DNA of 48,749 nucleotides, taken from assembly GCA_036476895.1 (NCBI GenBank), contig JAZGCJ010000225.1, positions 1 through 48,749 on the forward strand. The letters are read 5' to 3'. Positions within the stretch are counted from its first letter, which is position 1. Every line of letters begins with the position of its first letter. Positions 438 to 26,367 of the stretch are shown here, in pieces. The notes below the pieces were generated by a model. That model made no database searches. It worked only from the letters and a program-made list of their open reading frames with translations, and was not told the origin of the DNA. Source of the DNA: Thermodesulfobacteriota bacterium. GTDB taxonomy: Bacteria > Desulfobacterota_D > UBA1144 > Nemesobacterales > JAZGCJ01. The position numbers and the translations under genes are program-made.

Positions 438-663
438 GTAAACTCTTCCTGCAACAATCTTCTTTGCAAAACTCTAATTGATCAAATGGTATCTCCCGCA
501 CCTGGTATTCTTCTATCATATTAAACTTTGTCTGCGGAGAGTCTAATCCAAAATTTAAATTTGAGGCTATAGCAGCAGCCCGTCTTTTGTCCACACATAT
601 AGTCTTAGTGTTGATTATATTTTCTACATGATTGACGTAAACTACTTCGTAGACATATCTCAT
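430..663 (-). CDS. hypothetical protein
   Basis: Minus-strand ORF with a 4-nt start/stop overlap with the upstream ORF. No motif recognised. Confidence 0.55.
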   Translation of the reverse strand: MRYVYEVVYVNHVENIINTKTICVDKRRAAAIASNLNFGLDSPQTKFNMIEEYQVREIPFDQLEFCKEDCCRKSLHG

Positions 664-1064
664 CGTTTTCTCTTCTTCCGTTTCTTAGGTACGTATTTTA
701 AATCTATACCCTCTTTATACTGAGAAAGATAAGTTTGATATTGATATCTCAACTCATTTATTTCACTCACCCAATCTTCTACTGCCTCGATGATAGCGAG
801 ATTTTGAAACGTATCGTACATGTTCTTGACCATCTTTGTTCGGTGATCCTTTCTTTCTTCTTCTGATCTTAAATAAGACCATAAAGCCTCAATTGTTGAT
901 TCCATCCACATCCCAAACATTACACCACTTCCACTGTCATGTCGTGGAATCTTTCGGTTTGCTTCCTTTCCTTCAAACTTATACAGCCGATAAGCAAAGT
1001 CTTGAACTTTCTCTTTCATCTCCTCACACTTTCCTTCAAATTGAGTGAATGAAAGACTTGTCAT
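660..1064 (-). CDS. hypothetical protein with basic C-terminus (KKRKKRKR)
   Basis: 134-aa minus-strand ORF with 4-nt overlaps at both ends. No motif recognised. Confidence 0.6.
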   Translation of the reverse strand: MTSLSFTQFEGKCEEMKEKVQDFAYRLYKFEGKEANRKIPRHDSGSGVMFGMWMESTIEALWSYLRSEEERKDHRTKMVKNMYDTFQNLAIIEAVEDWVSEINELRYQYQTYLSQYKEGIDLKYVPKKRKKRKR

Positions 1065-1267
1065 ATTTTCTTTTCTAATGCATCAAAACTTTCTTTACCA
1101 TACCATTGCTTGGTCCATGTTGCTGCATCATGATATGCGTCCAGCGTATCGGTCACATAGTTTGCGAGAATAATCTCTGGCGTATGTGACCTATTATATC
1201 TTTTATACTTCTTTATCAATGCAGCCAGTTCGTGTCGAAAGTCACCTAACTCTGTGAATTCACTCAT
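1061..1267 (-). CDS. hypothetical protein
   Basis: 68-aa minus-strand ORF with 4-nt overlaps at both ends. Confidence 0.55.
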   Translation of the reverse strand: MSEFTELGDFRHELAALIKKYKRYNRSHTPEIILANYVTDTLDAYHDAATWTKQWYGKESFDALEKKI

Positions 1268-1827
1268 CTCCAGTCACCTCTCTTTCGTTTCCATTTGCGC
1301 CCCAGTTTATCTTCTAGCTTCTCAATCTTCTTTAGGAGCCTGCGAATCTGAATAACTGTATTCCGCTCACTACTATGTAACTTTCCACTAGGTCCAAACT
1401 CCATATCCAAGAATTCTTCCGCTATTTGTTTGTCCGTCCACTTTGATTTCAAATGAACCTTTCGCTGACGTTTGGCATTCCGAGTATCCAACAAGCCATA
1501 TGCGTCCAGTAATCTCAATGCAGAAAGATTATCTTTAATTCCATGAACAATGGTGGTACGCAGTGCCTTCTTAGTGCGAATTTTGTTTCGTCTCTCTCGT
1601 GAAAACGGCAATCCAAAATGATCGTACTTATGACCTAAGAACCATTTGATAAGATTCCTTGCCTGTGTCTTTGTTAGCTGAGTTTCATCCCACGGTCTGA
1701 AAGAAAAACCAGCCCCAATATTAATCATCTTGCGCTTTCGAAGCTTCGCATAATTATTGTAATGTTGCTTCATTATGCTTAAAGTTTTTTTATTATATAT
1801 GATGTCTTTTACCCTCATACCAGTCAA
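1264..1827 (-). CDS. hypothetical basic protein with internal NL-helix motif (DNLSALRLLDAYGLL)
   Basis: TTG start at 1827 lies 6 nt after GGAGGG. The product is Lys/Arg-rich. It contains a segment resembling the tails of the 21.4-26.4 kb paralog family. Confidence 0.55.
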   Translation of the reverse strand: MTGMRVKDIIYNKKTLSIMKQHYNNYAKLRKRKMINIGAGFSFRPWDETQLTKTQARNLIKWFLGHKYDHFGLPFSRERRNKIRTKKALRTTIVHGIKDNLSALRLLDAYGLLDTRNAKRQRKVHLKSKWTDKQIAEEFLDMEFGPSGKLHSSERNTVIQIRRLLKKIEKLEDKLGRKWKRKRGDWR

Positions 1828-2395
1828 ACATATCCCTCCTCAACTTTGCCATCCTACCGTCTGGATGGTGGAATACAATCCCTTCGGGCGGAACCTTATC
1901 ACTATGCTTTCGCTGATAGACCAAAGAAAACAAATCAGTCTTGAACCAATTCGAGATGTTCTCGAAGGTTTTAGGATACTTGTGATACGATCGGTATGTT
2001 GCCTTCTCTTTCAAATATTCAAAAGGATACCAACGAGTCTCATCCAACTTCAGAAAGTTCTTCTGAATCTTTGGACCCATCAGTTCCCCAAAGTGTTGAC
2101 CGTCCTTTGCTAACGCATGTCCTAAGTTCGGACAATTACGGACACCCTCAATATACCTGTTATTACTTAATGTGTCAAACATCTGAGGCTGAGTTCGGTT
2201 CCATAACCCCACCAATTGTCCCCCGTTCATAACGACGGAAACGTTTGTCCCATCGAGCTTTTCAACAGCCATTACCGTTGGGTCTTCGAACACCCAATTA
2301 TATCCTTCTTCAATGGTTGGAGTCACAACATAAATGCTGTCTCTCCATTCTCTTTTGAATGGTGATAGCAGTTTCGGCATATCATCAGCTTTCAT
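1793..2395 (-). CDS. Rnl2-like ATP-dependent RNA ligase (nucleotidyltransferase domain only)
   Basis: Covalent nucleotidyltransferase motifs appear in order: VEKLDGTN (motif I, KxDG), FGELMGPKIQKN (motif III), EGIVF (motif IV), AKLRRDMF (motif V). The ATG at 2395 is preferred (GGAGGG 5 nt upstream) over the TTG at 2431 given in the ORF track. Confidence 0.65.
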   Translation of the reverse strand: MKADDMPKLLSPFKREWRDSIYVVTPTIEEGYNWVFEDPTVMAVEKLDGTNVSVVMNGGQLVGLWNRTQPQMFDTLSNNRYIEGVRNCPNLGHALAKDGQHFGELMGPKIQKNFLKLDETRWYPFEYLKEKATYRSYHKYPKTFENISNWFKTDLFSLVYQRKHSDKVPPEGIVFHHPDGRMAKLRRDMFDWYEGKRHHI

Positions 2396-2780
2396 TTTGT
2401 CCCTCCAGTCCGTAATCTTCCCACCTCTCAAGTGCTGTTAAATTATTTCCGTGGGCTTCGGTGTTGTATGGTCCGTACTCAAGAAGTACCCATTCTTTTA
2501 TAAAGTCTTTTGATGGATTCCTACGTCCCTTCTCATATTCCTTGACTCCTAAATCAATTAATTTACGGCGTGTGTGTTTATCTCTATCCATGTTTTCCCA
2601 ATCTAAAGTTCCAATTATTCCTAACTCCCCAAAATGCTTCTTCATCATCTCAAACATTGCCATGCATGGATAGTAAGATGATAGACCGGAGAAGCCATAC
2701 TTTTTCACCAATTCATAAAACTCCGGTGATTTAATAATGTGTTTCGCTTCAGCGTTCTCGAAATCTATATTGGTCATCAT
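2385..2780 (-). CDS. hypothetical protein with NL-tail-like C-terminus (GNNLTALERWEDYGLEG)
   Basis: 131-aa minus-strand ORF. The C-terminal segment resembles the NL tails of the paralog array (compare DNNLKAVEIIDAYRLNG). Confidence 0.55.
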   Translation of the reverse strand: MMTNIDFENAEAKHIIKSPEFYELVKKYGFSGLSSYYPCMAMFEMMKKHFGELGIIGTLDWENMDRDKHTRRKLIDLGVKEYEKGRRNPSKDFIKEWVLLEYGPYNTEAHGNNLTALERWEDYGLEGQNES

Positions 2781-3090
2781 AGTATTGTGTTATCCTAAAC
2801 TTTTCTAAAACTGCTATCGCTTCCAGATTTCCAATCATGTGAATCACATCTTCTCTGATTGCTCTCCTGGTTAATCGACCTTCTCTTAATTGCTCATGTA
2901 CATACATCTCTGCTTCATCCAAAGTTACAGGTTTAATCTCACGTAAATACAGAGACATAACACAATCTTTAGATGCTGTAATGTCTACTCTTAATTTAGA
3001 GTTGTAATCTTCGAAAGTAGAAGTATGATTTGCTTGCACTACTAAATCAACCCACTTCGGCATTAACTCTCTTGGTATCTTATACTGCAT
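2749..3090 (-). CDS. hypothetical protein with NL-tail-like segment (GNLEAIAVLEKF)
   Basis: 113-aa minus-strand ORF with an NL-E-x-I-x-x-L-E segment near the C-terminus. Confidence 0.55.
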   Translation of the reverse strand: MQYKIPRELMPKWVDLVVQANHTSTFEDYNSKLRVDITASKDCVMSLYLREIKPVTLDEAEMYVHEQLREGRLTRRAIREDVIHMIGNLEAIAVLEKFRITQYYDDQYRFRER

Positions 3091-3442
3091 TTTTTACCGA
3101 ATCAACTGATATAAATTTCTTACATTTGCATGTCGATGTTTTAGAACCATTACCATCTTTATCTGGTTTAAGAAAATACTCTGTATGAGATTTATGACAT
3201 TCAGTCCCACCATCTTTCCCAAAATGTCGTGATCCACTATGCTTACATATACATAAAGGATAAGATGAATATGTTACCTCAACATCTCTTGTAAAGCTAA
3301 ACTCATATCCACACTCTCCACATTCTGTTTCTCCATCATCACTATATTCCCATGAATCAGATTGTTCCTGCCCACAATAAGGACATGTGACCTCATCTTT
3401 ATTATATAACTCAAAGTCATTTGGTTTCTCTTTATCACTCAT
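3080..3442 (-). CDS. Cys-rich zinc-ribbon protein
   Basis: CPYCGQE...CGECGYE zinc-ribbon pairs plus further Cys/His (CICKH, CHKSH, CKCKK). Confidence 0.55.
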   Translation of the reverse strand: MSDKEKPNDFELYNKDEVTCPYCGQEQSDSWEYSDDGETECGECGYEFSFTRDVEVTYSSYPLCICKHSGSRHFGKDGGTECHKSHTEYFLKPDKDGNGSKTSTCKCKKFISVDSVKNAV

Positions 3443-6663: not shown

Positions 6664-7344
6664 TCAATCAATTATCTCCTGTTGATAAAGTTTCTTCGAA
6701 GGCCAATGAATACCTGTCATCATTCCCTTATGACCTTCCCTCCAATTGAAATTACAGGTGTCAATACAAATACCAAACTGTCCTTCTTTGTCTGTGTGCC
6801 ATTTGACATGCTGTAACCCTTGATGACCGTACACCTGAAACTTTCCAGGGATTCTCTTTATGTTCCCTCTGTTCCAACATAATCCTTCATTGTGTTCAGG
6901 AGGTAATGTCAAAAGTTTTGCCATCCCAAATATAGGATTGATAGGCGCATGAGTTATAATTAAATCATCTTTCTCGATGTACCGTGGTAGACTTCGCATC
7001 CAAGCAATATGTTCATCGGATATTGTTTTGTGTCCATTCTTTTGTTCGTTAGGATCATATGATTTCATGGTCGCAAGTCCCCCATTCATCGCCCATATCC
7101 CGTCATCATACACACCACGTCTACTAACATTGACAGACTCAATCCAATCAATCATCATGTGTTCATGATTTCCCAGTACAGCTTTACCATTTTTCATCAA
7201 AAAGTCAACTACCTCTTTAGATGAAGGACCTCTGTCGATCATGTCTCCAACAGAAATAGTTTCACCTTCAGGCATTTTCTTCAGTAAAGCCTGGAGAGTT
7301 GCAAAATTACCCGCTATGTCTCCTATAATGTTTAACTCGCTCAT
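6664..7344 (-). CDS. lambda-phosphatase/ApaH-type metallophosphoesterase
   Basis: Motifs GDMIDRG and GNHEH plus downstream His residues (THAP, YGHQG). Motif I reads GDIAG rather than GDxHG. Confidence 0.8.
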   Translation of the reverse strand: MSELNIIGDIAGNFATLQALLKKMPEGETISVGDMIDRGPSSKEVVDFLMKNGKAVLGNHEHMMIDWIESVNVSRRGVYDDGIWAMNGGLATMKSYDPNEQKNGHKTISDEHIAWMRSLPRYIEKDDLIITHAPINPIFGMAKLLTLPPEHNEGLCWNRGNIKRIPGKFQVYGHQGLQHVKWHTDKEGQFGICIDTCNFNWREGHKGMMTGIHWPSKKLYQQEIID

Positions 7345-8923: not shown

Positions 8924-9136
8924 TCATTCCTTATCGTTCTCCTGATCTGTTATTAATTCCAGAGCTACCAAATTATTTTCTGCGAACTGTATAATTTGTT
9001 CTTTCCAGAACTCCTCAGTAACCTTACCCGTTCCTTGACAAGCAATACATCCCGCAGGTAAACCGAGATTATATGGAAGATACTCTGACCCTGTACCGCG
9101 ACAAACCTGACATGATTTCAAATTATCATTAACCAT
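8924..9136 (-). CDS. NL-tail family mini-protein, double CxxCxGxG zinc-knuckle subtype (dispersed copy)
   Basis: MVNDNLKSCQVCRGTGSE...CIACQGTGKVTEEFWKEQIIQFAENNLVALELI has the same architecture as the array at 21.4-23.3 kb. The ATG at 9136 overlaps the upstream TAA (TAATG). Confidence 0.6.
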   Translation of the reverse strand: MVNDNLKSCQVCRGTGSEYLPYNLGLPAGCIACQGTGKVTEEFWKEQIIQFAENNLVALELITDQENDKE

Positions 9137-10034: not shown

Positions 10035-10280
10035 CTATCCTCCAATTCCCTTTTTTTCTAAATAAGACTGTCTTAAATAGTCTTGAAATATTAGATGCTT
10101 TAGTAGTGGATGAAGAATAGCTGTAACATTTTCTGGTGTTGGCTTCTCCACCTCGTTATAAATAAAATCAATGAAGTCATGAACTTTTGGTTCAATGTTA
10201 TATAAACTCCAACACATTCTCTGCATATCATGTGCTGTCTTTATGATGGGATGATCCTTCAAGTAACTTTCTATACTCAT
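10035..10280 (-). CDS. hypothetical protein
   Basis: 81-aa minus-strand ORF with a 4-nt overlap upstream. Confidence 0.55.
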   Translation of the reverse strand: MSIESYLKDHPIIKTAHDMQRMCWSLYNIEPKVHDFIDFIYNEVEKPTPENVTAILHPLLKHLIFQDYLRQSYLEKKGIGG

Positions 10281-10927
10281 ATCATTTTCTCCAATTCACC
10301 TCGTACTCTTTCCGGTGTTATTTTAGGATACGCTTCGTTAAAGTATTCTCTGCAAGCCCTCAGCGATCCAATGTGAGGCTTGAACCCTTTCGTCAAGAAC
10401 CTATAGAACCTGAACACTCTCAAGTAATCCTCTTTGATTCTATCCTTCGGTCTCCCAATAAATCGTAAGACTCTTTTATTTAAATCTTCCAGGCCAGTTC
10501 CGTTTGGATCAAAAGTTTCACCTGACTCAAAGTCGAGATATAAAGCATTCACCGTGAAGTCCCTCCGCTTTGCATCCTCTTCCAACGTACCTATCTCTAC
10601 GGACTCTGGTCGTCTACCATCTAAGTATACACCATCTTTGCGGAAATTTGCAACCTCGTATTGCTCATGATCCTTGGAAATACTTAACACTAAGAACTTT
10701 TCACCTGTTTCATCTACCTTCCAGCCAGCCTTCTTAAATGCTGGCTTGGACTTCTCAATGGGTGCCTCGGTCACAATATCCAAATCCTTGAAGTCCTTTT
10801 CCATCATGTAATCTCTGACGCAGCCCCCGACCAAATAGTTGTGTGCTGAATATTGTTTTAACACCGCAAAGATATCCGTGAGGTGATAGTATTGTGTTCT
10901 TCGTAAAGGAATAGTATCCTGAGTCAT
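10277..10927 (-). CDS. tRNA nucleotidyltransferase / poly(A) polymerase family protein (CCA-adding head domain, short form)
   Basis: LVGGCVRDYMM..DFKDLDIVT (GGxVRD ... DxD) and RRDFTVNALY motifs are typical of class II CCA-adding enzymes. At 216 aa it lacks the long body/tail domains. Confidence 0.85.
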   Translation of the reverse strand: MTQDTIPLRRTQYYHLTDIFAVLKQYSAHNYLVGGCVRDYMMEKDFKDLDIVTEAPIEKSKPAFKKAGWKVDETGEKFLVLSISKDHEQYEVANFRKDGVYLDGRRPESVEIGTLEEDAKRRDFTVNALYLDFESGETFDPNGTGLEDLNKRVLRFIGRPKDRIKEDYLRVFRFYRFLTKGFKPHIGSLRACREYFNEAYPKITPERVRGELEKMI

Positions 10928-17073: not shown

Positions 17074-17472
17074 TTAGCTCACCGAATCAGCAAAGGCTAT
17101 TACCATCTTCTTTGCGTCCTCTAGTGTCTTGGCTTTGAATCCTACTGGCAATCCATCAATGGCCGATCCTTCCTCTACCTCATCTCCAACACCGAATCCA
17201 TATCGTGCTCTGTGACTCCACCTGTACCATTTGTTTTCTTTCTCACAAAATCCAATTGAACAGACACTATCATCTGGATGGGCTTTCTCCGGTATGATTC
17301 CCATTTCTTTTAAATCCTCTGCATTGGCTTGCTTACTAATATAAGCACCATCAAATGTATAAGCTCCGGTGTTTGTTATGGTCTTACCATTCTCATCTGT
17401 GCTTAAGAACTTAGTTACTAGCTCATAAGTATCCAAGCGTTCTCTCTTGAGTATGTCTCCGTATTTACTCAT
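17074..17472 (-). CDS. hypothetical protein
   Basis: The ATG at 17472 (MSKYGDIL...) lies 5 nt after GGAGGAGG. Confidence 0.6.
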   Translation of the reverse strand: MSKYGDILKRERLDTYELVTKFLSTDENGKTITNTGAYTFDGAYISKQANAEDLKEMGIIPEKAHPDDSVCSIGFCEKENKWYRWSHRARYGFGVGDEVEEGSAIDGLPVGFKAKTLEDAKKMVIAFADSVS

Positions 17473-17668
17473 TACTTCCTCCTCCATATTCTGACGAAAT
17501 AAAAGATATCTCCCAAAATGTCTTTAATTGTTTCTTATTATATCTCAATACATTATCATTTAAAGGCCCACCGATACAATAAATAATGCTTTCAATATCA
17601 GAGAAAGCCTTACTCATCTTTTGTATCTCTTTTCGCATTTCATAGTTCTCTTTATAAATATTAGCCAT
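17465..17668 (-). CDS. hypothetical protein
   Basis: 67-aa minus-strand ORF. Confidence 0.5.
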   Translation of the reverse strand: MANIYKENYEMRKEIQKMSKAFSDIESIIYCIGGPLNDNVLRYNKKQLKTFWEISFISSEYGGGSNE

Positions 17669-19716: not shown

Positions 19717-19867
19717 ACAATATCTCCTTTACATTAGTGTTAGTTAATGCTACCATGAATAGCATCTTTTTGCAACATTCCAAACAAATATACTGCCCAC
19801 TTCCCTCCTCACAAAACCAACATTTAGTATTACGCAGACGAGTCACACTGAGCATCATCTCCACCAT
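19646..19867 (-). CDS. hypothetical Cys-rich protein (long 3' overlap with next gene)
   Basis: CWFCEE...CLECC cluster. It overlaps 19351..19716 by 71 nt, so its 3' part is doubtful. Confidence 0.4.
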   Translation of the reverse strand: MVEMMLSVTRLRNTKCWFCEEGSGQYICLECCKKMLFMVALTNTNVKEILYGTKGKKSKKGTKAKSLSHKHRG

Positions 19868-20255
19868 TCATGCGCCCTTGTGGTAATTCATCAGGCTTTG
19901 CTGCTCTTGTCATTATCACTTTCTTTGTTGTTGGGTCCAACTCTTTAACGTAGTCATCAAACCAAATTGATGGCTCCTTCGCTAACTCTCTCCACTCTTT
20001 CTCGTTAGCCTGTACTAGCGCAATTAGCTCAGTCACCTTTAAATTATCATCCACAAACCAACCATTGATTGTGTACGTCAATTCTTCGATGTTGATAGAG
20101 CCTTGCAGATAATTGACGATGTACTCCAAGATGTTATTCTCTATCATACTGACTCTACTATTATAATTCTTTGAATTTGAATTATTGTTAATAGTCTTTT
20201 GAACTTGCTCCATAACTTCTCGGTAGCGTCCTTTTCCTTTCAGTACTATTCTCAT
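19830..20255 (-). CDS. hypothetical protein, short paralog of 20252..21103
   Basis: Shares LKG.GRY.EV ... YLQG.I..EE.(S/T)Y....WFV.DNLKVT.L ... EW..L.K.P.IW(Y/F)D.Y with its upstream neighbour. Confidence 0.6.
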   Translation of the reverse strand: MRIVLKGKGRYREVMEQVQKTINNNSNSKNYNSRVSMIENNILEYIVNYLQGSINIEELTYTINGWFVDDNLKVTELIALVQANEKEWRELAKEPSIWFDDYVKELDPTTKKVIMTRAAKPDELPQGRMNGGDDAQCDSSA

Positions 20256-21103
20256 TTGAAAGGCTCATCAATATCAGGGACTGGCCCCTGTTTTTCTTCA
20301 TCATACTCGATTACGTCTATTTGTTCTTCATTTGGATTTTTAGCCTCATCAATCAACTTCACAATATCAACATCAGACTTCTCCACTGCATCATTAATCT
20401 GAACATTCCCATTTGCTGGATCAACAGCCTTAAGTTCTTCTGTACCACTGGTCATCTTTGCAATTGATCTTATAGTTTGTGCAGGTTTACCTTGAATTCC
20501 TGCTCCTGCAAATGATTGAGGCATTGAAATTCCTGGCATCGGTCCTGGATGAACACCATGAGGGTTAGTCATTGCTTTCTCTTGCTCTTGTTCTTTGATA
20601 ATGTTGTACGGAACCTCATGCTCAAAAGCTGGCTTAACGTGGCTCTCGCCTGTCTTTGGATCAGTTATCTTCCAATACTGATCATACCAAATTCGTGGGT
20701 CTTTCATTAACTTCTTCCACTCCTCACCCTTGTCATTTATGGTATCCATTAATTGAGTGACCTTTAAATTATCTCCAACAAACCAACTTCCAACTGAGTA
20801 GGAGAATTCTTCTCGTGTAATCTTCCCTTGAAGATAAGAGTCTAAATATGATAAGACTTCTCTGGCAAATGTGTCGTTTGCATCCAATCCTATAATCTCT
20901 TTAATCTCCTTCAACACTTCGTTGTAGCGTCCTTGACCTTTCAAGATCATTTTATTTGAATCGTGGTGCTTAGGATTTGTTTGTTCCGGTGATCCATATC
21001 CTTGTGGCAATGATGTGCTTAACATTTTATAACTCTCCTTTAAATTATTTATCCTCTCTTCAACTTCTGCTACCGTCATAGTCTTTGACTTTGAGTCCGT
21101 CAT
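20252..21103 (-). CDS. hypothetical protein, long paralog of 19830..20255
   Basis: 283-aa ORF. The central region aligns by eye with ORF 19830..20255. It has an extra Pro/Gly-rich and acidic C-terminal half. Confidence 0.65.
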   Translation of the reverse strand: MTDSKSKTMTVAEVEERINNLKESYKMLSTSLPQGYGSPEQTNPKHHDSNKMILKGQGRYNEVLKEIKEIIGLDANDTFAREVLSYLDSYLQGKITREEFSYSVGSWFVGDNLKVTQLMDTINDKGEEWKKLMKDPRIWYDQYWKITDPKTGESHVKPAFEHEVPYNIIKEQEQEKAMTNPHGVHPGPMPGISMPQSFAGAGIQGKPAQTIRSIAKMTSGTEELKAVDPANGNVQINDAVEKSDVDIVKLIDEAKNPNEEQIDVIEYDEEKQGPVPDIDEPFK

Positions 21104-21462
21104 AATACTGATATGTCCTTCGTTTCATATGAGCTGTTGGGGTCAAATCTTTTCTCCACCATAATATGACCTATCAAATCTCTTTCTTTATATTCCTCGT
21201 GATAACCTCGCCACGCATTCATATCCCCAAACTTATGATCATAATGACGCAAAATCGTTTGTGCTTCTCTTCTGATTTTATCCCCTTTCTCTTTGATCCA
21301 AAGTCCTATGAGGTAACTCAAATGTCCACAGAAAATTGATATAACCGTTCCTGTTAATACACCTACAATTGTAGGTGTGAGCAAAGCCATCAAATAGATG
21401 ATCTGTTGATGAATCTCCAAGTCATTGAACCATTCACTCATATTATACAAAAATCTTATCAT
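21100..21462 (-). CDS. membrane protein (2 TM)
   Basis: Hydrophobic helices IIYLMALLTPTIVGVLTGTVISIFCGHLSYLIGLW. ATGA overlap with the last array gene. Confidence 0.55.
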   Translation of the reverse strand: MIRFLYNMSEWFNDLEIHQQIIYLMALLTPTIVGVLTGTVISIFCGHLSYLIGLWIKEKGDKIRREAQTILRHYDHKFGDMNAWRGYHEEYKERDLIGHIMVEKRFDPNSSYETKDISVL

Positions 21463-21731
21463 TTATCCACCATTCTTTCCTCAAAAATCTCAATTTTTTC
21501 CAGATTATTCTTGCCAAACTGATTGAGTACCTGTTCTTTTAAAGTGTTCCTAGTAACCCACCCACCTTTGCAGACCCCACAAGTGTCTCGATAAGGAATT
21601 AAGTCTCTCCGTTTATCTAATCCTTTCTCCAAAAGAGGAGGTCTTAGACGTGCTACTTGTCCCTTTCCATCACATTGTAAACATTGATATTTAGTAACTT
21701 TATTCAATATTACTCGCCTCAAAAATCGCAA
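21459..21731 (-). CDS. NL-tail family mini-protein, double zinc-knuckle subtype
   Basis: CLQCDGKGQ ... CGVCKGGWVTRNTLKEQV ... KNNLEKIEIFEE. The likely true start is the TTG at 21707 (MNKVTKYQC), embedded in the upstream tail codons. Confidence 0.65.
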   Translation of the reverse strand: MRFLRRVILNKVTKYQCLQCDGKGQVARLRPPLLEKGLDKRRDLIPYRDTCGVCKGGWVTRNTLKEQVLNQFGKNNLEKIEIFEERMVDK

Positions 21732-21960
21732 TTAATTCCAAATTGTTCTTACCAAAATCCTTATGTTTGGTAATCTGTTCTTTCAATGTCTCTCTATCCA
21801 CCAGCCCATCTTCACACCATCCACAGGGATGCCAATGTGGTACTAATTTACGCCACTCACTTATAGGCCCCTTTGCTTGTTCTTCATTCGCCGGTTCATG
21901 CGACATCAGAGGAGTCACTCCATAGCCATCACACCGGAAACATTGGTATTTCTTACTCAT
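21700..21960 (-). CDS. NL-tail family mini-protein, double zinc-knuckle subtype
   Basis: CFRCDGYGV ... CGWCEDGLVDRETLKEQI ... KNNLELIAIFEA. Confidence 0.65.
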   Translation of the reverse strand: MSKKYQCFRCDGYGVTPLMSHEPANEEQAKGPISEWRKLVPHWHPCGWCEDGLVDRETLKEQITKHKDFGKNNLELIAIFEASNIE

Positions 21961-22192
21961 GTATTACGCTCTCTTCTAACATCTCTATCAATTTTAAATT
22001 GTTACACGATTCAGAACTCACTTGCAGAAGTTGAGCCTGTAATCCACCCCTACTCACAAACCCCATACCATAACATCCATTACAAGGTTCTACTGTTTTC
22101 TTTAAAGTTCGTGATCGTAGTAATTGTAAGCCAGTGAAGCCATCACCTTTACAAGTGCTACATCGGTATCTCTCTATTTGGTCCGTTTTCAT
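21953..22192 (-). CDS. NL-tail family mini-protein, double zinc-knuckle subtype
   Basis: CSTCKGDGF ... CNGCYGMGFVSRGGLQAQL ... CNNLKLIEMLEE. Confidence 0.65.
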   Translation of the reverse strand: MKTDQIERYRCSTCKGDGFTGLQLLRSRTLKKTVEPCNGCYGMGFVSRGGLQAQLLQVSSESCNNLKLIEMLEESVIHE

Positions 22193-22406
22193 AAGCTTCT
22201 ATTATCTCCAGGTTCGACTTGTTTGGATGATGCTTCATTTGCTCTAAGAAATCCTTTTCATGTAACCAACCACTTCCTAAACAGCTTTGACATTCAGACT
22301 GACGAGAAGAAACCATATTATGCCATGAATTATAATATTCACATACACCAGTGAATCCCATACCATTGCAGTCTAAGCATTTACATCTCTTCTTAATCTC
22401 CTTCAT
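22158..22406 (-). CDS. NL-tail family mini-protein, double zinc-knuckle subtype
   Basis: CLDCNGMGF ... CQSCLGSGWLHEKDFLEQM ... KSNLEIIEAYEN. Confidence 0.65.
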   Translation of the reverse strand: MKEIKKRCKCLDCNGMGFTGVCEYYNSWHNMVSSRQSECQSCLGSGWLHEKDFLEQMKHHPNKSNLEIIEAYENGPNREIPM

Positions 22407-22599
22407 ACAGTTCTACAATACTCAAGTTGTTTGTTTTGAACGTCGGGTTCTTCACCTGTTTCATAAAAGTTTCTTTACTCACTTTTCCCGTACCATCACA
22501 ACCCGTACATGTTACTGGGAATATACGATTACCAACACGAGCCTGAAAGTTCCCATGTCCGTAACATCTTATGCATTTATGATTAGTCAGCTTGTTCAT
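22393..22599 (-). CDS. NL-tail family mini-protein, double zinc-knuckle subtype
   Basis: CIRCYGHGN ... CTGCDGTGKVSKETFMKQV ... TNNLSIVELYEGD. The ATG at 22599 lies inside the upstream TAT-GAA codons. Confidence 0.65.
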   Translation of the reverse strand: MNKLTNHKCIRCYGHGNFQARVGNRIFPVTCTGCDGTGKVSKETFMKQVKNPTFKTNNLSIVELYEGD

Positions 22600-22780
22600 A
22601 AAGTTCAACTAGCTCCAAATTACTTTTCCATTGTCCTGACTCTCGTACCTGTCGGAGGAATGTTTTCTTTGTTACCTTTCCCCTTCCTCCACAATCTCCA
22701 CAATTTTGTATCTTTCCATCCAAGTAAATACTTGGCATATTCCAACACATGAGACACTTAAACTTCTTCCGCTTTTTCAT
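22583..22780 (-). CDS. NL-tail family mini-protein, double zinc-knuckle subtype
   Basis: CLMCWNM ... CGDCGGRGKVTKKTFLRQV ... KSNLELVELYEQAD. The ATG at 22780 lies inside the upstream TAT-GAA codons. Confidence 0.65.
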   Translation of the reverse strand: MKKRKKFKCLMCWNMPSIYLDGKIQNCGDCGGRGKVTKKTFLRQVRESGQWKSNLELVELYEQAD

Positions 22781-23000
22781 ATAGTTCAATTATCTCCAAG
22801 TTATTGTAGCTTACATGTGCTTGAGGTATTTGCTTTATGAACCTCTCCTCCGTTATCCTTCCAAATATATCACATTGATCACAATCTTCTTCTCGAAACC
22901 AACCTATATCTGGATCACTAGAGTCGTGAGATATTATTGAGGTATAAACCTTCTTTCTACCTCGGCACCTTAAACATCGAAATTTATTTGGCTTTTTCAC
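22758..23000 (-). CDS. NL-tail family mini-protein, double zinc-knuckle subtype
   Basis: CLRCRGRKK ... CDQCDIFGRITEERFIKQI ... YNNLEIIELYEKAEEV. GTG start inside the upstream TGT-GAA codons. Confidence 0.65.
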   Translation of the reverse strand: MKKPNKFRCLRCRGRKKVYTSIISHDSSDPDIGWFREEDCDQCDIFGRITEERFIKQIPQAHVSYNNLEIIELYEKAEEV

Positions 23001-23280
23001 AAAACTCCACTATCTCTAGGATATCTATCATTACCAAATTATCTTTTATCTCATGAACCAACTGCCTCTTAAGATCATCATACGTTATCAATCCCTTTCC
23101 ACTACAATGACAACAGGGTTCTTCATACTGTACTCCAGTTGGACATTCGTCCCCACAATTATCACCATTACAACTTCCAGAATGGGCAGGATCTATCCAG
23201 TACTCTACTCCGGTCCCCTGACACACCCAACAGGAATACATCTTGACTCCCTCGACAACTGTGTTACCTATTAAGTTCAT
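22984..23280 (-). CDS. NL-tail family mini-protein, zinc-knuckle subtype with extra Cys cluster
   Basis: CWVCQGTGV ... CNGDNCGDEC ... CCHCSGKGLITYDDLKRQL ... DNLVMIDILEIVEFCE. An alternative start at 23241 has a strong RBS. Confidence 0.65.
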   Translation of the reverse strand: MNLIGNTVVEGVKMYSCWVCQGTGVEYWIDPAHSGSCNGDNCGDECPTGVQYEEPCCHCSGKGLITYDDLKRQLVHEIKDNLVMIDILEIVEFCEKAK

Positions 23281-23536
23281 AATGTTCTACTAAAGCGATT
23301 GCATGTAAATTATTTATCGTTGGCATTGGTTGTGACGCACGTCCAATTATCCACTGAATTAAATATTTCTTATCATAAATAGGGTATCCCATAGCTTTTG
23401 CTTTATTTAATGCGTCCATCAACTCTTTTATTTCACACCCACTACAAGGCATCCCCACTCCAAGACGTTTCTGTAAACTCGCTTGGCATCCAGTGCACTC
23501 CACATTAAGTATATCAGGTAGTTGATTCATTAGCAA
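23264..23536 (-). CDS. NL-tail family protein, CxxC/CxxC subtype
   Basis: CTGCQ ... CSGCE, then INNLHAIALVEHYELNR. Confidence 0.6.
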   Translation of the reverse strand: MLMNQLPDILNVECTGCQASLQKRLGVGMPCSGCEIKELMDALNKAKAMGYPIYDKKYLIQWIIGRASQPMPTINNLHAIALVEHYELNR

Positions 23537-23835
23537 CTCCCGTCCGAAAAAGTAAATTCTATATTACAGTTCGGACACAAATGAGTTTCTTCCCACATTG
23601 TTGGTGATCCCCCAAACTCCATTGAAGCCCATATGTCAGCTTGTTCACTGTCATATATCGGATAGGCTTTATATCCCTTCGGAGGCTTTGGAAACAATCT
23701 GAAAGTTTTCTCATCGTATCCGGTACAGTCGTTTATTTCCCCATCCTTTATATAATAGAATCCCTCATCTAATTGATACCATCCACACACTGGACACTGA
23801 TAATCTGCGTATTCTTCTTTGACAGGTTCAGTCAT
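23530..23835 (-). CDS. zinc-ribbon protein (no NL tail) inside the array
   Basis: The ATG at 23835 follows AGGTGGAG. Cys pairs CPVCGW ... CPNCN. Confidence 0.55.
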   Translation of the reverse strand: MTEPVKEEYADYQCPVCGWYQLDEGFYYIKDGEINDCTGYDEKTFRLFPKPPKGYKAYPIYDSEQADIWASMEFGGSPTMWEETHLCPNCNIEFTFSDGSC

Positions 23836-24094
23836 TAAACTCCACCTTTTTACCAAACAGAAGACAAAGGTATACAAGTCCATGATTAATGATGTACCAC
23901 TTCGACACTGGTTGTTTAATAGCTTTATCCGATCTGAGAATTATCCATATTACGAAACCTAACATTAAGTACATCACAAAAGCTGCTATGGGTCCAAAAA
24001 TTATCAAATTCAATAAGAACAAAGCTAATATGCCAAAGCACACCAGCCTATCCCCTTGACTCATTTCCACCTTAGTCACTTTTATTGAGTTCAT
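23828..24094 (-). CDS. small membrane protein inside the array
   Basis: Two or three hydrophobic helices. The ATG is embedded in the upstream TAT-GAA (YE) codons. Confidence 0.55.
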   Translation of the reverse strand: MNSIKVTKVEMSQGDRLVCFGILALFLLNLIIFGPIAAFVMYLMLGFVIWIILRSDKAIKQPVSKWYIINHGLVYLCLLFGKKVEFND

Positions 24095-24392
24095 AAAATT
24101 CTATTAACTCCACTGCATGTAAATTTGTTACCACTGGATTCTGACTCGTATAGTCCAGTATTTTGTCCATTAAATATTTTTTACTATGATACGGATTTCC
24201 TTTGAAATGATGGTTACGAGCATCTTCTATAATATAGATAAAGTCTTTCATTACACATCCTATACAAGGCCATGCACTTTCTTCACAAAGTAATCTATTA
24301 CAATGCATGTTAAATACATGCGCTATTTCTTCCTCTATTTCTGTCTCTATTTCTGTCTCTATTTCTTTAACCATTGAGTCTGTAGGCATCAA
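24072..24392 (-). CDS. NL-tail family protein
   Basis: Acidic (EIET)n N-terminus, HCNRLLC..CIGC, then VTNLHAVELIEFYELN. Confidence 0.6.
   Translation of the reverse strand: MMPTDSMVKEIETEIETEIEEEIAHVFNMHCNRLLCEESAWPCIGCVMKDFIYIIEDARNHHFKGNPYHSKKYLMDKILDYTSQNPVVTNLHAVELIEFYELNKSD
24333..24368. repeat. 12-bp tandem repeat x3 (ctctatttctgt), in-frame (EIET)n
   Basis: Read directly from the sequence. Encodes EIETEIETEIEEEI in ORF 24072..24392. Confidence 0.8.
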
Positions 24393-24771
24393 TTATCTCC
24401 ACCGCTTTCAAATTATTATCCTTGAACACATCCATCACAAAATTTCTCCATGATGTCCTCTCCGTCCACTTCCCATATCGAGTTTCAAATTCAGGCACCA
24501 TGACTTTACTCATCGGTTTAATCCTTCCTACCCAGTAGGAATACAATGCATATCGTAATGCTGTAATCTCACTTTTGACAGGCTCACAGCCACAAATTGG
24601 GTCAGAACACTCACACATCTCTACCCCTTCCCACACCTTCTCAGCCTCTAATAATTCTTCCCGTCTCCTCATCCTATCCATCTCCTCGTGATCGGACAAG
24701 CCAATTTGTACTTTAAAGGCAGTTATCAGCTTACCCAAATGGTAAATTCCTTCATATTTTGCGTATTTCAT
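24367..24771 (-). CDS. NL-tail family protein
   Basis: The ATG at 24771 follows GGTGAAAATA. Contains CECSDPICGCEP and then DNNLKAVEIIDAYRLNG. Confidence 0.6.
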   Translation of the reverse strand: MKYAKYEGIYHLGKLITAFKVQIGLSDHEEMDRMRRREELLEAEKVWEGVEMCECSDPICGCEPVKSEITALRYALYSYWVGRIKPMSKVMVPEFETRYGKWTERTSWRNFVMDVFKDNNLKAVEIIDAYRLNG

Positions 24772-24783
24772 TATTTTCACCAA

Positions 24784-24875
24784 GCATATTTAATGCGTTC
24801 GGTTCTCCAAAGAAAGCATATCTCATGCAGATTCGATGCGTATTTAAGACATAAAAAGGCATATTTAATGCGTTC
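24784..24875. repeat. intergenic direct repeats of GCATATTTAATGCGTTC (2 perfect copies plus degenerate GCAT-N5-ATGC copies)
   Basis: 17-bp perfect copies at 24784-24800 and 24859-24875. GCATATCTCATGC lies at 24816-24828. This is the only sizeable non-coding gap inside the array. Confidence 0.8.
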
Positions 24876-24887
24876 AGTTTTCTCACT

Positions 24888-25223
24888 TTAGAGTCCATTT
24901 CCCCTGTGCCTTATTGTGGTCATATCCTCTGTGTCATGCCGTATATCTCTCAAGTCACTCATCAACTCCAAGATATGTAGGTTTGGCATATTTAGAATCT
25001 CCCCCAATACTTTACCTACTGTTGGAGCATTAATCATATTACCTAAATACGCACACAATAAGTCATCAATGAATCTATGATTTATCGCTTGGAGATGTAC
25101 GTTCCTCTCTTTCTCTATCCAAGGCCCTACCAACTCATCAAATACTTGCTGGTATCGTTTAATACGCTTCAAACTATTATTGTCCACTTTTGCTCTGCCT
25201 TTCGATATCAGCTTTGGCCTCAT
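24888..25223 (-). CDS. NL-tail family protein (no Cys motif)
   Basis: MPNLHILELMSDL lies near the C-terminus. Confidence 0.55.
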   Translation of the reverse strand: MRPKLISKGRAKVDNNSLKRIKRYQQVFDELVGPWIEKERNVHLQAINHRFIDDLLCAYLGNMINAPTVGKVLGEILNMPNLHILELMSDLRDIRHDTEDMTTIRHRGNGL

Positions 25224-25449
25224 TCATTTCATCCACTATCTCTACCCACTCCAAATTCGGTACATCTGTGATAAAATTCAACAACCGTACTGATTTCTGT
25301 GCAGTAACCTCACCTGCTAAAAATCTGTATATGGCTAAATGTAAGACACCCTCATCAAAGTCATCCACTCCTCTATCTTTCACCTTCCTTTGAAGATAAG
25401 GTCTAAGTTTGTCCATGAAGTAAGCGGTCTTTGATTCTACGAAATTCAT
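25177..25449 (-). CDS. NL-tail family protein (no Cys motif)
   Basis: VPNLEWVEIVDEM lies near the C-terminus. GAGGAGACAG precedes the ATG. Confidence 0.55.
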   Translation of the reverse strand: MNFVESKTAYFMDKLRPYLQRKVKDRGVDDFDEGVLHLAIYRFLAGEVTAQKSVRLLNFITDVPNLEWVEIVDEMNEAKADIERQSKSGQ

Positions 25450-25744
25450 CTGTCTCCTCTCTTAATGTATTTAATTTATCCACCACTTCTATTAATTCAA
25501 GGTTCTGTAAGACTGTGTATCTCTGTATCATCTTAGTTAATGTCCGACAAGATAATGACCCATGAATGTAAAGCTCTCCTATCATATACAATTCATCCAC
25601 TCGGCGTTGCCAAGCTGTATCAGGACTCTCAGTATCATCCAATCCCTTTGGTTTTATCTTCTCATCTTCAAAAAATTTAAACCGCTTCTCTAAGAAATTC
25701 TTGAAGATAGCATCATAGTATTCAATTAGCTCTTTTTTTACCAC
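25403..25744 (-). CDS. NL-tail family protein (no Cys motif)
   Basis: LQNLELIEVVDKL. The GTG at 25744 (6 nt after GGTGGA) is preferred over the ORF-track start at 25825, which overlaps the upstream gene by 88 nt. Confidence 0.5.
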   Translation of the reverse strand: MVKKELIEYYDAIFKNFLEKRFKFFEDEKIKPKGLDDTESPDTAWQRRVDELYMIGELYIHGSLSCRTLTKMIQRYTVLQNLELIEVVDKLNTLREETDEFRRIKDRLLHGQT

Positions 25745-25971
25745 ACCAGAAGTCCACCCAAATATCCTGTAAGTCCTGCCAGGGCTATAATCTCCCACCA
25801 AGGTGCTTTGTAAAACATGAACCATACTTTCTTATAAACTGCTAAGAACAGTCCATAAGCTATGTCCGTTGGTACAGTCCATAGTAAAAACTTCAGCCAT
25901 ACTCCTGGTTGCTCTTTGAAGTCCGCCCAAAACATCAATGCTATCTCCTTTTCTGGATCAATTATTATCAT
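25738..25971 (-). CDS. small membrane protein inside the array
   Basis: Hydrophobic helices. ATGA overlap with the upstream gene. Confidence 0.55.
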   Translation of the reverse strand: MIIIDPEKEIALMFWADFKEQPGVWLKFLLWTVPTDIAYGLFLAVYKKVWFMFYKAPWWEIIALAGLTGYLGGLLVW

Positions 25972-26273
25972 TTTTTCACCTCGTTTAACCCATAGGCATC
26001 TAGGATTTCTATTGACTGAAAATTAGTGAACATTCTCTTTCTTTTCATTATCTGTTGAAAGAATCTTCTTACCCATTCATTGGTATCTTCCACGTTTATT
26101 CCTTTACCTAAATTAACTTTTCCCGTTGTAACATATTGCTCCAGTAATGTTTTGATATAGTTCCTACGACATCCTATGCATTGACAAAATGGTAACGACG
26201 ATGGGTTCTGAGCAAAGCATCTCAGCAATATACCTTTCCACACTTCCTCTCGGTTTTCTTTATTCTCTTCCAC
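25968..26273 (-). CDS. NL-tail family protein (CQCIGC)
   Basis: The GTG at 26273 lies 6 nt after AAGGAG. Tail is TNFQSIEILDAYGLNE. Confidence 0.55.
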   Translation of the reverse strand: MEENKENREEVWKGILLRCFAQNPSSLPFCQCIGCRRNYIKTLLEQYVTTGKVNLGKGINVEDTNEWVRRFFQQIMKRKRMFTNFQSIEILDAYGLNEVKK

Positions 26274-26367
26274 TAAAATCTCCTTCAAAGAGTTGGGTTA
26301 GGTTATCCCTACAGCCAGCGAAACCATCAGCACGTACTAAAAGGACTGTACTATCGGGGGTGTACAT
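26260..26367 (-). CDS. possible 35-aa ORF with NL-like tail (RDNLTQLFEGDF)
   Basis: The ATG at 26367 follows AAAGGAC. Below the ORF-track cutoff. Its 3' end carries the RBS of the next gene. Confidence 0.3.
   Translation of the reverse strand: MYTPDSTVLLVRADGFAGCRDNLTQLFEGDFSGRE

Follow-up and report, generated by a model that had tools for sequence, protein, structure and literature searches.

The subject of this work is a tandem array of small genes in a 48,749-nt stretch of DNA (contig JAZGCJ010000225.1, positions 1 to 48,749; hereafter the window), which is part of a 78,757-bp metagenomic contig. The array, by which we mean the minus-strand genes between 21459 and 26288, holds 15 open reading frames (ORFs) with a common C-terminal segment, the NL tail, and constitutes a multigene family, specific to this lineage, of small phage proteins with a modular build, in which a variable N-terminal head is followed by a conserved C-terminal module of about 30 residues (the NL module). 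The known kinds that underlie it are the small Cys-rich proteins of phages and lineage-specific paralogue expansions, while the NL module itself, the many unrelated heads that carry it and an array architecture kept across a clade of uncultured phages appear to be undescribed. A first-pass annotation of the window had listed the 15 ORFs together with their tails, and all of them are found on the minus strand where it had placed them. The array is given below from its first gene to its last, with lengths in amino acids (aa) and with ratios of non-synonymous to synonymous substitution rates (dN/dS) from orthologue pairs; genes are named by their lower coordinate, L001, L003 and L004 are metagenomic phage fragments from close relatives, L006 and L007 come from more distant ones, and L005 is the same 78.7-kb contig as the window, reaching beyond window position 1.

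25968..26288, minus strand: first array gene, 101-106 aa, Cys-rich head (CxC..C) and tail TNFQSIEILDAYGLN, probable module member; its orthologue at L004 450-758 (52% aa identity, dS saturated) has a CYDCGGTG knuckle
25738..25971, minus strand: small membrane protein, 77 aa, without the module, which breaks the array; orthologue in L004, dN/dS 0.18
25403..25744, minus strand: helical Cys-free member, 113 aa, internal module ...QNLELIEVVDKL... running on into a longer helix; dN/dS 0.38
25177..25449, minus strand: helical Cys-free probable member, 90 aa, module VPNLEWVEIVDEM; dN/dS 0.28
24888..25223, minus strand: helical Cys-free probable member, 111 aa, module MPNLHILELMSDL; orthologue at L004 1523-1813
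24784..24887, no strand: non-coding gap of 104 bp with a palindrome cluster, which splits the array
24367..24783, minus strand: member with a CxC...CxC head, 123-138 aa, tail NNLKAVEIIDAYRLNG; dN/dS 0.29
24072..24392, minus strand: member with a Cys4 head, 105-106 aa, tail TNLHAVELIEFYELNKSD; blastp to 23264 1.4e-12
23828..24094, minus strand: small membrane protein, 88 aa, without the module; orthologue at L003 1030-1290, dN/dS 0.15
23530..23883, minus strand: unrelated C4 zinc-ribbon protein, 101-117 aa, without the module; orthologue at L003 1670-1975, dN/dS 0.17
23264..23536, minus strand: member with a CxxC...CxxC head, 88-90 aa, tail NNLHAIALVEHYELNR; dN/dS 0.29-0.48
22984..23280, minus strand: large knuckle member, 85-98 aa, additional Cys in the loop, tail DNLVMIDILEIVEF; orthologues P0010, L003 2262-2564 and L007 859-1125
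22758..23000, minus strand: knuckle member, 80 aa, tail NNLEIIELYEKAEEV; orthologues P0002 and P0005
22583..22789, minus strand: knuckle member, 65 aa from ATG 22780, first knuckle degenerate, tail SNLELVELYEQAD
22393..22608, minus strand: knuckle member, 68 aa from ATG 22599, the protein used for a structural model
22158..22406, minus strand: knuckle member, 82 aa, tail SNLEIIEAYENGPNREIPM; dN/dS 0.08; orthogroup with a hypervariable inter-knuckle loop
21953..22192, minus strand: knuckle member, 79 aa, tail NNLKLIEMLEE
21700..21960, minus strand: knuckle member, 86 aa, tail NNLELIAIFEA; orthologues P0003 and P0011, dN/dS 0.17
21459..21731, minus strand: last knuckle member, 82 aa from TTG 21707, tail NNLEKIEIFEE

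The zinc ribbon at 23530-23883 and the 104-bp gap at 24784-24887 interrupt the array as the first-pass annotation had described; it had also counted three small membrane-protein genes inside, of which two do lie within 21459-26367, whereas the third (21100-21462, minus strand, conserved in L001, with a weak holin-family match to phrog_20, E = 8e-4) is situated just outside, directly after the array. For several genes the longest ORF probably begins too far upstream, ATG 22599, ATG 22780 and TTG 21707 being likelier starts.

The similarity of the tails is well above what shuffled sequence produces. The regular expression N[LF]xx[IVLM][EADS][IVLMA][IVLMYF][EDS] has 17 minus-strand matches in the window, against an average of 0.5 and never more than 3 in codon-triplet shuffles of the window, and a single match on the opposite strand. 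In order to avoid circularity, a hidden Markov model (HMM) was built from the C-terminal 36 residues of knuckle-family proteins from other phages only. With this independent HMM, the nine knuckle proteins of the window (the eight in the array and a dispersed copy at 8924) score between 30 and 52 bits (22984, 36; 22758, 52; 22583, 47; 22393, 49; 22158, 52; 21953, 30; 21700, 33.5; 21459, 39; 8924, 32), while no reversed or shuffled ORF exceeds 7.3 bits in this search and a larger shuffled database gives 8.6-9.7 bits. Among the non-knuckle members, 23264 scores 16 bits, 24367 14.9 bits and 24072 11.9 bits (rising to 25 bits with an iterated HMM); 25403, with 8.3 bits, is marginal, because this value falls within the control range of up to 9.7 bits. 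The remaining three (25968, 25177 and 24888) were not recruited by the independent HMM, and iteration recruits neither these nor 25403. For these four genes the link to the family comes from the motif, from blastp within subfamilies (25403 matches 25177 at 3e-6 and its paralogue at 2749-3093 at 7e-4) and from hhalign profile comparison (subfamily A3 against A5, P = 2e-4 over 30 columns; A4 against A5, P = 5e-3). Judged from these sequence comparisons, homology of the module is robust for 11 array members and at motif level only for 25968, 25403, 25177 and 24888.

Beyond the array, further copies of the module, some of them doubtful, were found at the following positions:

8924..9136, minus strand: ninth knuckle member, lying apart from the others, 70 aa, tail NNLVALELITDQ; in L006 the syntenic orthologue is P0078, beside orthologues of the 237-aa and Metallophos genes
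2749..3090, minus strand: possible weak member, 113 aa, paralogue of 25403, GNLEAIAVLEKF; not above controls with the independent HMM
1264..1827, minus strand: 187-aa protein with internal module ...IKDNLSALRLLDAYGLLD...; 12.7 bits with the independent HMM, against 7.3-9.7 for controls
660..1064, minus strand: possible weak member, 134 aa, QNLAIIEAVEDW; its 6.5 bits with the independent HMM do not exceed the controls
L005 12165-12470, 13344-13745, 17910-18395 and 19813-20163: four more NL-tail proteins, 101-161 aa, with unrelated heads

At least these four proteins of L005 lie beyond the window (one tail there reads '...AYNNLEAIDKLDDWGLL*'), so that members of the family are scattered across more than 45 kb of genome, and the whole phage encodes about 20-25 module-bearing proteins.

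A second small paralogue family was also noticed, at 19830-20255 and 20252-21103 (minus strand) and at L005 12865-13359 (blastp 5e-28). Its segment 'WFV[DG]DNLKVT[EQ]L' recalls the NL motif, and its score with the module HMM is not above controls.

The first-pass annotation had singled out a tail of 10 residues and a linker preceding it. Both are real, although the conserved unit is larger, being a helix-loop-helix of about 30 aa. In hhalign comparisons between subfamilies, 30-33 columns align (P = 1e-4 and 2e-4), from the final Gly of the second knuckle onwards; the consensus consists of a first helix, G-x-[VL]-[TS]-x3-[FL]-x2-Q-[VIL], a loop of 5-12 residues and a second helix, N-N-L-x-[AIL]-[IV]-E-[LI]-Φ-[ED]-x-Y-x-L-N. 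The AlphaFold2 model of the 22393 protein (predicted local distance difference test, pLDDT, 82.6) has a β-hairpin between the knuckles and helices at 42-50 and 58-66. The model of the 24367 protein likewise ends in two helices (97-108 and 112-120), with low confidence (pLDDT 58), and was left out of the fold search because it is too uncertain. Helix 2 is hydrophobic at positions +1, +3, +4, +6, +7 and +10 and bears an acidic stripe (Glu at +5 in 63 of 78 sequences, Glu or Asp at +8 in 70 of 78, with Asn, Asp or Ser at -1). This apolar surface is larger than a two-helix hairpin would bury by itself, which suggests an intermolecular interface, as a hint rather than a proof. The net charge of the module lies between 0 and -4 and is negative in all members except one.

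Heads of very different kinds carry the NL module, and it is the amino-acid sequence of the module that is conserved. In L003, knuckle proteins end in NNLRAIEAIEHYELNKSD, which is the "long" tail of the non-knuckle proteins of the window, so that the NL tail is one module across head types. The first-pass annotation did not recognise the tail as a described family, and indeed we found no match for it in Pfam, PHROGs, NCBIfam or the PDB: scanning 30 module sequences one by one against Pfam and PHROGs gave no recurring family, and the module profile reaches at best E = 0.1 against the PDB and retrieves nothing from NCBIfam. Two familiar kinds of helical element were considered for it and rejected, namely a membrane-targeting helix, since the module is acidic, and a helix-turn-helix, since the loop is 5-12 residues long and variable in length.

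That the ORFs code for protein and evolve under purifying selection follows from dN/dS values of 0.08-0.49 in 15 of 17 orthologue pairs, obtained by comparison with three related metagenomic phage fragments (dS is saturated in the other two). A different question is whether the tail is conserved as a peptide or as a nucleotide signal, and some features of the gene junctions do point to the latter. At no fewer than six junctions (22780, 22599, 22406, 22192, 24094 and 23280) the ATG of the next gene is built from the Tyr-Glu codons of the tail (TAT GAA), +22 or +31 nt from the Asn codon of the tail; the start of the membrane-protein gene 23828..24094 is one of these. Additionally, the NLE residues are commonly encoded by AAT TTG GAG, which contains GGAG. 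The tail could then have been preserved as the Shine-Dalgarno and start region of the following gene, or by gene conversion at the junctions, the peptide being irrelevant. This explanation is largely refuted, and we regard it as hardly credible. Synonymous codons vary freely at every conserved residue (among 38 tails, all six Leu codons occur at the invariant Leu, and Asn is split 26/12 and Glu 13/15), which places the conservation at the protein level; at least six tails are 40-200 nt away from the next start, and one tail precedes the 104-bp gap; and the tail is kept in orthologues at saturated dS. In particular, 24367 belongs to the best-conserved orthogroup, with a tail that is nearly invariant in six orthologues at near-saturated synonymous divergence. 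Gene conversion as the source of tail identity was ruled out, given that the codons differ.

The start-codon overlap probably marks the unit of tandem duplication and gives translational coupling, the array genes overlapping tightly. L003 retains the junction ..YELNKSD* / MNSIKV.., despite another head on its upstream gene.

The heads are of several types. Nine window proteins had been described as having two CxxCxGxG knuckles; two CxxC pairs are present in all nine, although both motifs are complete in only five. One knuckle or both are degenerate in 21459, 21700, 22583 and 22758, where the Cys pairs are kept and Gly is lost. Across 40 family proteins, two or more full CxxCxGxG motifs occur in 20 and a single one in 16. 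The non-knuckle heads have other Cys4 motifs (23264, 24072, 24367 and 25968) or are Cys-free and helical (25403, 25177 and 24888). Within the 22158 orthogroup, the inter-knuckle loop of about 18 residues is hypervariable in sequence and length, while the knuckles and the module are conserved. The net charge of the heads ranges from -8 to +11.

The assignment of the knuckles to the type found in the cysteine-rich (CR) domain of DnaJ, proposed in the first-pass annotation, is supported by three lines of comparison. PF00684 matches six of the nine knuckle members with 17.1-23.0 bits (E = 1e-4 to 7e-3), not reaching the gathering threshold of 32.7; the knuckle family profile matches the sequence of the E. 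coli DnaJ CR domain (1exk) with E = 5e-4; and Foldseek aligns the model with 2ctt, 7zhs and 1exk (probability 0.92-0.96, root-mean-square deviation (rmsd) 2.0-2.8 Å, 37-43 columns), but with E = 0.16-0.31. The DnaJ CR domain is the best match of the array knuckles both in sequence and in fold. CxxCxGxG knuckles are present in both, and in the array proteins they would likewise flank a β-hairpin and bind zinc. The two also differ: DnaJ has two zinc centres and four knuckles, whereas the array proteins have one centre and two knuckles, often degenerate, and lack the J domain, the G/F region and the C-terminal substrate-binding domains (no J domain was matched in Pfam or NCBIfam, the knuckle proteins being 65-98 aa long). 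Conversely, in the array the knuckle is followed by the NL module, which DnaJ does not have.

Anti-TRAP (RtpA) of Bacillus subtilis is a protein inhibitor that oligomerises via its C-terminal helix, and the first-pass annotation had likened the array to it. If the array proteins were true relatives, they would be expected to trimerise through the C-terminal helix and to block one oligomeric host protein. The predicted architecture is indeed alike (a mini-protein with two CxxC knuckles for a single zinc of the DnaJ type, followed by a helix), and weak matches to PF15777 and NF058604 exist, which however remain far below their cutoffs (NF058604, 16.3 and 12.5 bits against 65; PF15777, 12.6-15.2 bits against 32, E = 0.02-0.14). 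PDB entry 3lcz gives E = 0.9 over 16 residues of one knuckle, and anti-TRAP does not appear among the top 50 Foldseek matches, so neither a sequence nor a fold match is significant, and DnaJ CR matches better. The array proteins have two C-terminal helices with an invariant N-L...E...E motif, without counterpart in the helix of anti-TRAP, and, unlike anti-TRAP, they are phage-encoded, occur in paralogue arrays and have variable loops. We therefore consider membership of this family highly improbable. Since anti-TRAP inhibits proteins and oligomerises through a helix, it is still a useful model for how the present family could work.

Another possibility is that the proteins are small zinc-ribbon regulators of the lambda Q or DksA/TraR type, with heads binding nucleic acid or RNA polymerase and the module serving for dimerisation. 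One member matches phrog_6060 ('anti-termination protein Q-like', E = 1.5e-5), Q-lambda is among the weak PDB and Foldseek matches, and several heads are strongly basic, up to +11. These matches are limited to the CxxC knuckles (residues 4-41 of the one member in the case of phrog_6060), the Foldseek rmsd to Q (7ubl) is 13 Å and the remainder of Q is absent; other heads are as acidic as -8, so that a nucleic-acid-binding character is not uniform; and a set of over 20 paralogous regulators in a single phage would seem unprecedented. Regulators of this type are accordingly an unlikely identity for the family as a whole.

The knuckle head as such is an ordinary phage feature. The closest counterparts in fold and size are uncharacterised Cys-rich 'DnaJ central domain' phage proteins (Salmonella phage 7-11 G0X569, phi92 gp070 and the phrog_8027/9961/6060 type), which the array knuckles match with E = 1e-5 to 1e-2 in PHROGs; in BFVD, small Cys-rich phage knuckle proteins are alike in fold and size with a probability of about 1.0 and E = 5e-3 to 0.1. 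None of the uncharacterised proteins has the NL module, arrays of twelve or more paralogues are not known for them, and the module alone has no match in PHROGs. Searches of Pfam, PHROGs, NCBIfam and PADLOC with the array proteins returned knuckle matches only, all of them sub-threshold, and the literature on DnaJ-like zinc fingers in phages offered only genome annotations, including those of marine phages, without function.

The family was found only on metagenomic phage contigs, and there too as arrays (L001, L003, L004 and L007). An exhaustive HMMER search of 1.84 billion representative proteins returned 135 matches, of which about 50 are small proteins (55-100 aa) aligned over knuckle and tail, the remainder being multi-knuckle DnaJ-like proteins aligned at the knuckle only. 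Ten distant members that we examined are metagenome-only singletons or near-singletons, several of them on shared short contigs. In the tandem array of L007, one non-knuckle member is joined by five with knuckles, and all six share the ending NNLxAIExLDKxGL[LN]. Neither megablast and blastn of the array nor tblastn of two members against 50,697 GenBank phage genomes gave a match (nothing relevant, in the case of tblastn), and the same was true of IMG/VR scans (with MoxR, a 283-aa neighbour and two degenerate DNA patterns of the tail) and of two JGI metagenome scans. One scan of 185,579 GTDB genomes was also without a match, and no host or prophage copy was found.

The array genes arose by tandem duplication, and both copy number and order vary among related phages, with one L004 member inverted. 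The inverted gene (L004 2409-2684, minus strand) is the orthologue of 23264-23536, lies on the opposite strand directly after the orthologue of 24367, and points to a local inversion within the array or to an artefact of assembly. The array proteins are under purifying selection and yet evolve much faster than the neighbouring core genes: the C-terminus of MoxR in L004 is identical in 46 of 47 aa despite 16 third-position changes in 48, against 52-78% aa identity for the array proteins.

The source of the contig is a deeply novel large phage, with no relatives in GenBank phages or IMG/VR. Its gene content comprises a MoxR ATPase partnered by a VWA/DUF2201 protein, as well as DNA polymerase I, primase, SbcCD and a Cas4-like exonuclease; genes over at least 58 kb are all on the same strand, the GC skew is strongly negative throughout, and the window together with L005 contains neither structural genes nor transfer RNA (tRNA) genes. 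MoxR stands directly upstream of the array here and in L004; of any MoxR/VWA link, only this adjacency has been retained, in a single close relative. The following genes are also relevant to the interpretation:

17074-17487, minus strand: clear homologue of Tad6, which inhibits type I Thoeris (PF25188, 125 bits where the cutoff is 27, E = 3e-36), some 4 kb downstream from the array
10277-10927, minus strand: PolyA_pol/CCA-type nucleotidyltransferase
6664-7344, minus strand: calcineurin-like phosphoesterase
1793-2431, minus strand: RNA ligase (PF09414)
L005 15141-16529: second AAA ATPase (PF00004), with IetA (2e-21) and TRIP13 as best PADLOC matches

The region downstream of the array is a counter-defence and repair neighbourhood, in which the ligase, phosphoesterase and nucleotidyltransferase look like a tRNA/RNA-repair toolkit against anticodon nucleases.

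Based on these comparisons of sequence and predicted structure, our preferred reading, which we put forward tentatively, is that the variable heads are diversified protein binders for host takeover or counter-defence and that the NL module is a shared protein-protein interface. The head would usually be a single-zinc knuckle of the DnaJ CR type, with the hypervariable β-hairpin loop as the putative binding part, and the module would dock every head onto one common partner, a phage or host hub; alternatively, by analogy with the C-terminal helix of anti-TRAP, it may assemble the paralogues into homo- or hetero-oligomers. Such an arsenal of binders plausibly fits the variable loop, the range of head charge, the fast evolution and the Tad6 homologue nearby. 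Several points weigh against it. The counter-defence part draws solely on the neighbourhood and the evolutionary rate; the module is short, and in four array members its homology stays at the level of the motif; small Cys-rich knuckle proteins are common in phages, none of them with an assigned role; the model of the second, non-knuckle member is of low confidence; and the start codon of the following gene, which overlaps the tail, places a constraint of its own on the Y-[EG] positions.

A more specific version, rather doubtful in our judgement, is that the module acts as an addressing tag, taking at least 20 different effector heads to one hub, for which the MoxR/VWA pair, the second AAA ATPase (a possible candidate on the same footing as MoxR/VWA), the capsid or a host complex could be considered. 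There are known systems with a like logic, in which fast-evolving effector bodies are brought by one short module to a common machine, and whose loci, as here, are plastic and variable in copy number. The internal proteins of phage T4 are hypervariable and share a capsid-targeting sequence (CTS), which is N-terminal and cleaved; in the ankyrin/PRANC families of poxviruses, the F-box-like PRANC binds eukaryotic Skp1. The likeness is one of analogy only, neither system having a sequence or structural relationship to the array. If the addressing tag were true, the array would be a counterpart, in a bacterial virus, of the PRANC or T4 CTS logic, and the module a handle by which many host-takeover or anti-defence effectors could be uncovered together.

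Taken literally, the T4 comparison leads to a further explanation, in which the NL module is a packaging and ejection tag that loads about 20 small effectors into the capsid, from where they enter the cell with the DNA. One short module on many unrelated heads across more than 45 kb, the fast evolution of the heads and the counter-defence neighbourhood would all be expected from it. The module is, however, C-terminal and helical instead of an N-terminal cleaved peptide, the genes are in a long unidirectional block with replication and auxiliary genes and not with structural genes, neither a protease site nor linkage to structural genes was seen, and folded zinc domains would not be obvious cargo for ejection. 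For these reasons a packaging function seems decidedly unlikely.

Small orphan genes abound in phage genomes, and here about one sixth of the genes belong to a single modular family, combining a constant part, an undescribed domain, with a variable one that resembles a binding loop. Should the module be a common docking or assembly handle, as in the reading of the heads as protein binders, a pull-down with it would reveal the hub, and the heads would amount to a natural library of small zinc-scaffold binders against host targets, possibly defence systems; should the proteins be inert or merely structural, the array would be an ordinary lineage-specific expansion. The module HMM also provides a search key for such effectors in other metagenomic phages.

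Regarding non-coding elements, Rfam and tRNA scans were negative, and scans for sigma-70 promoters and terminators did no better than shuffles. The 104-bp gap contains three exact GCAT-N5-ATGC palindromes (at 24784, 24816 and 24859) and a degenerate copy at 24838, spaced by 32, 22 and 21 bp; the whole window has four exact copies against 0.49 expected. Four diverged copies (GTMTGAAATYTGT) are present with the same spacing at L004 1814-1965, and the sequence pattern makes the cluster a candidate operator or iteron array.

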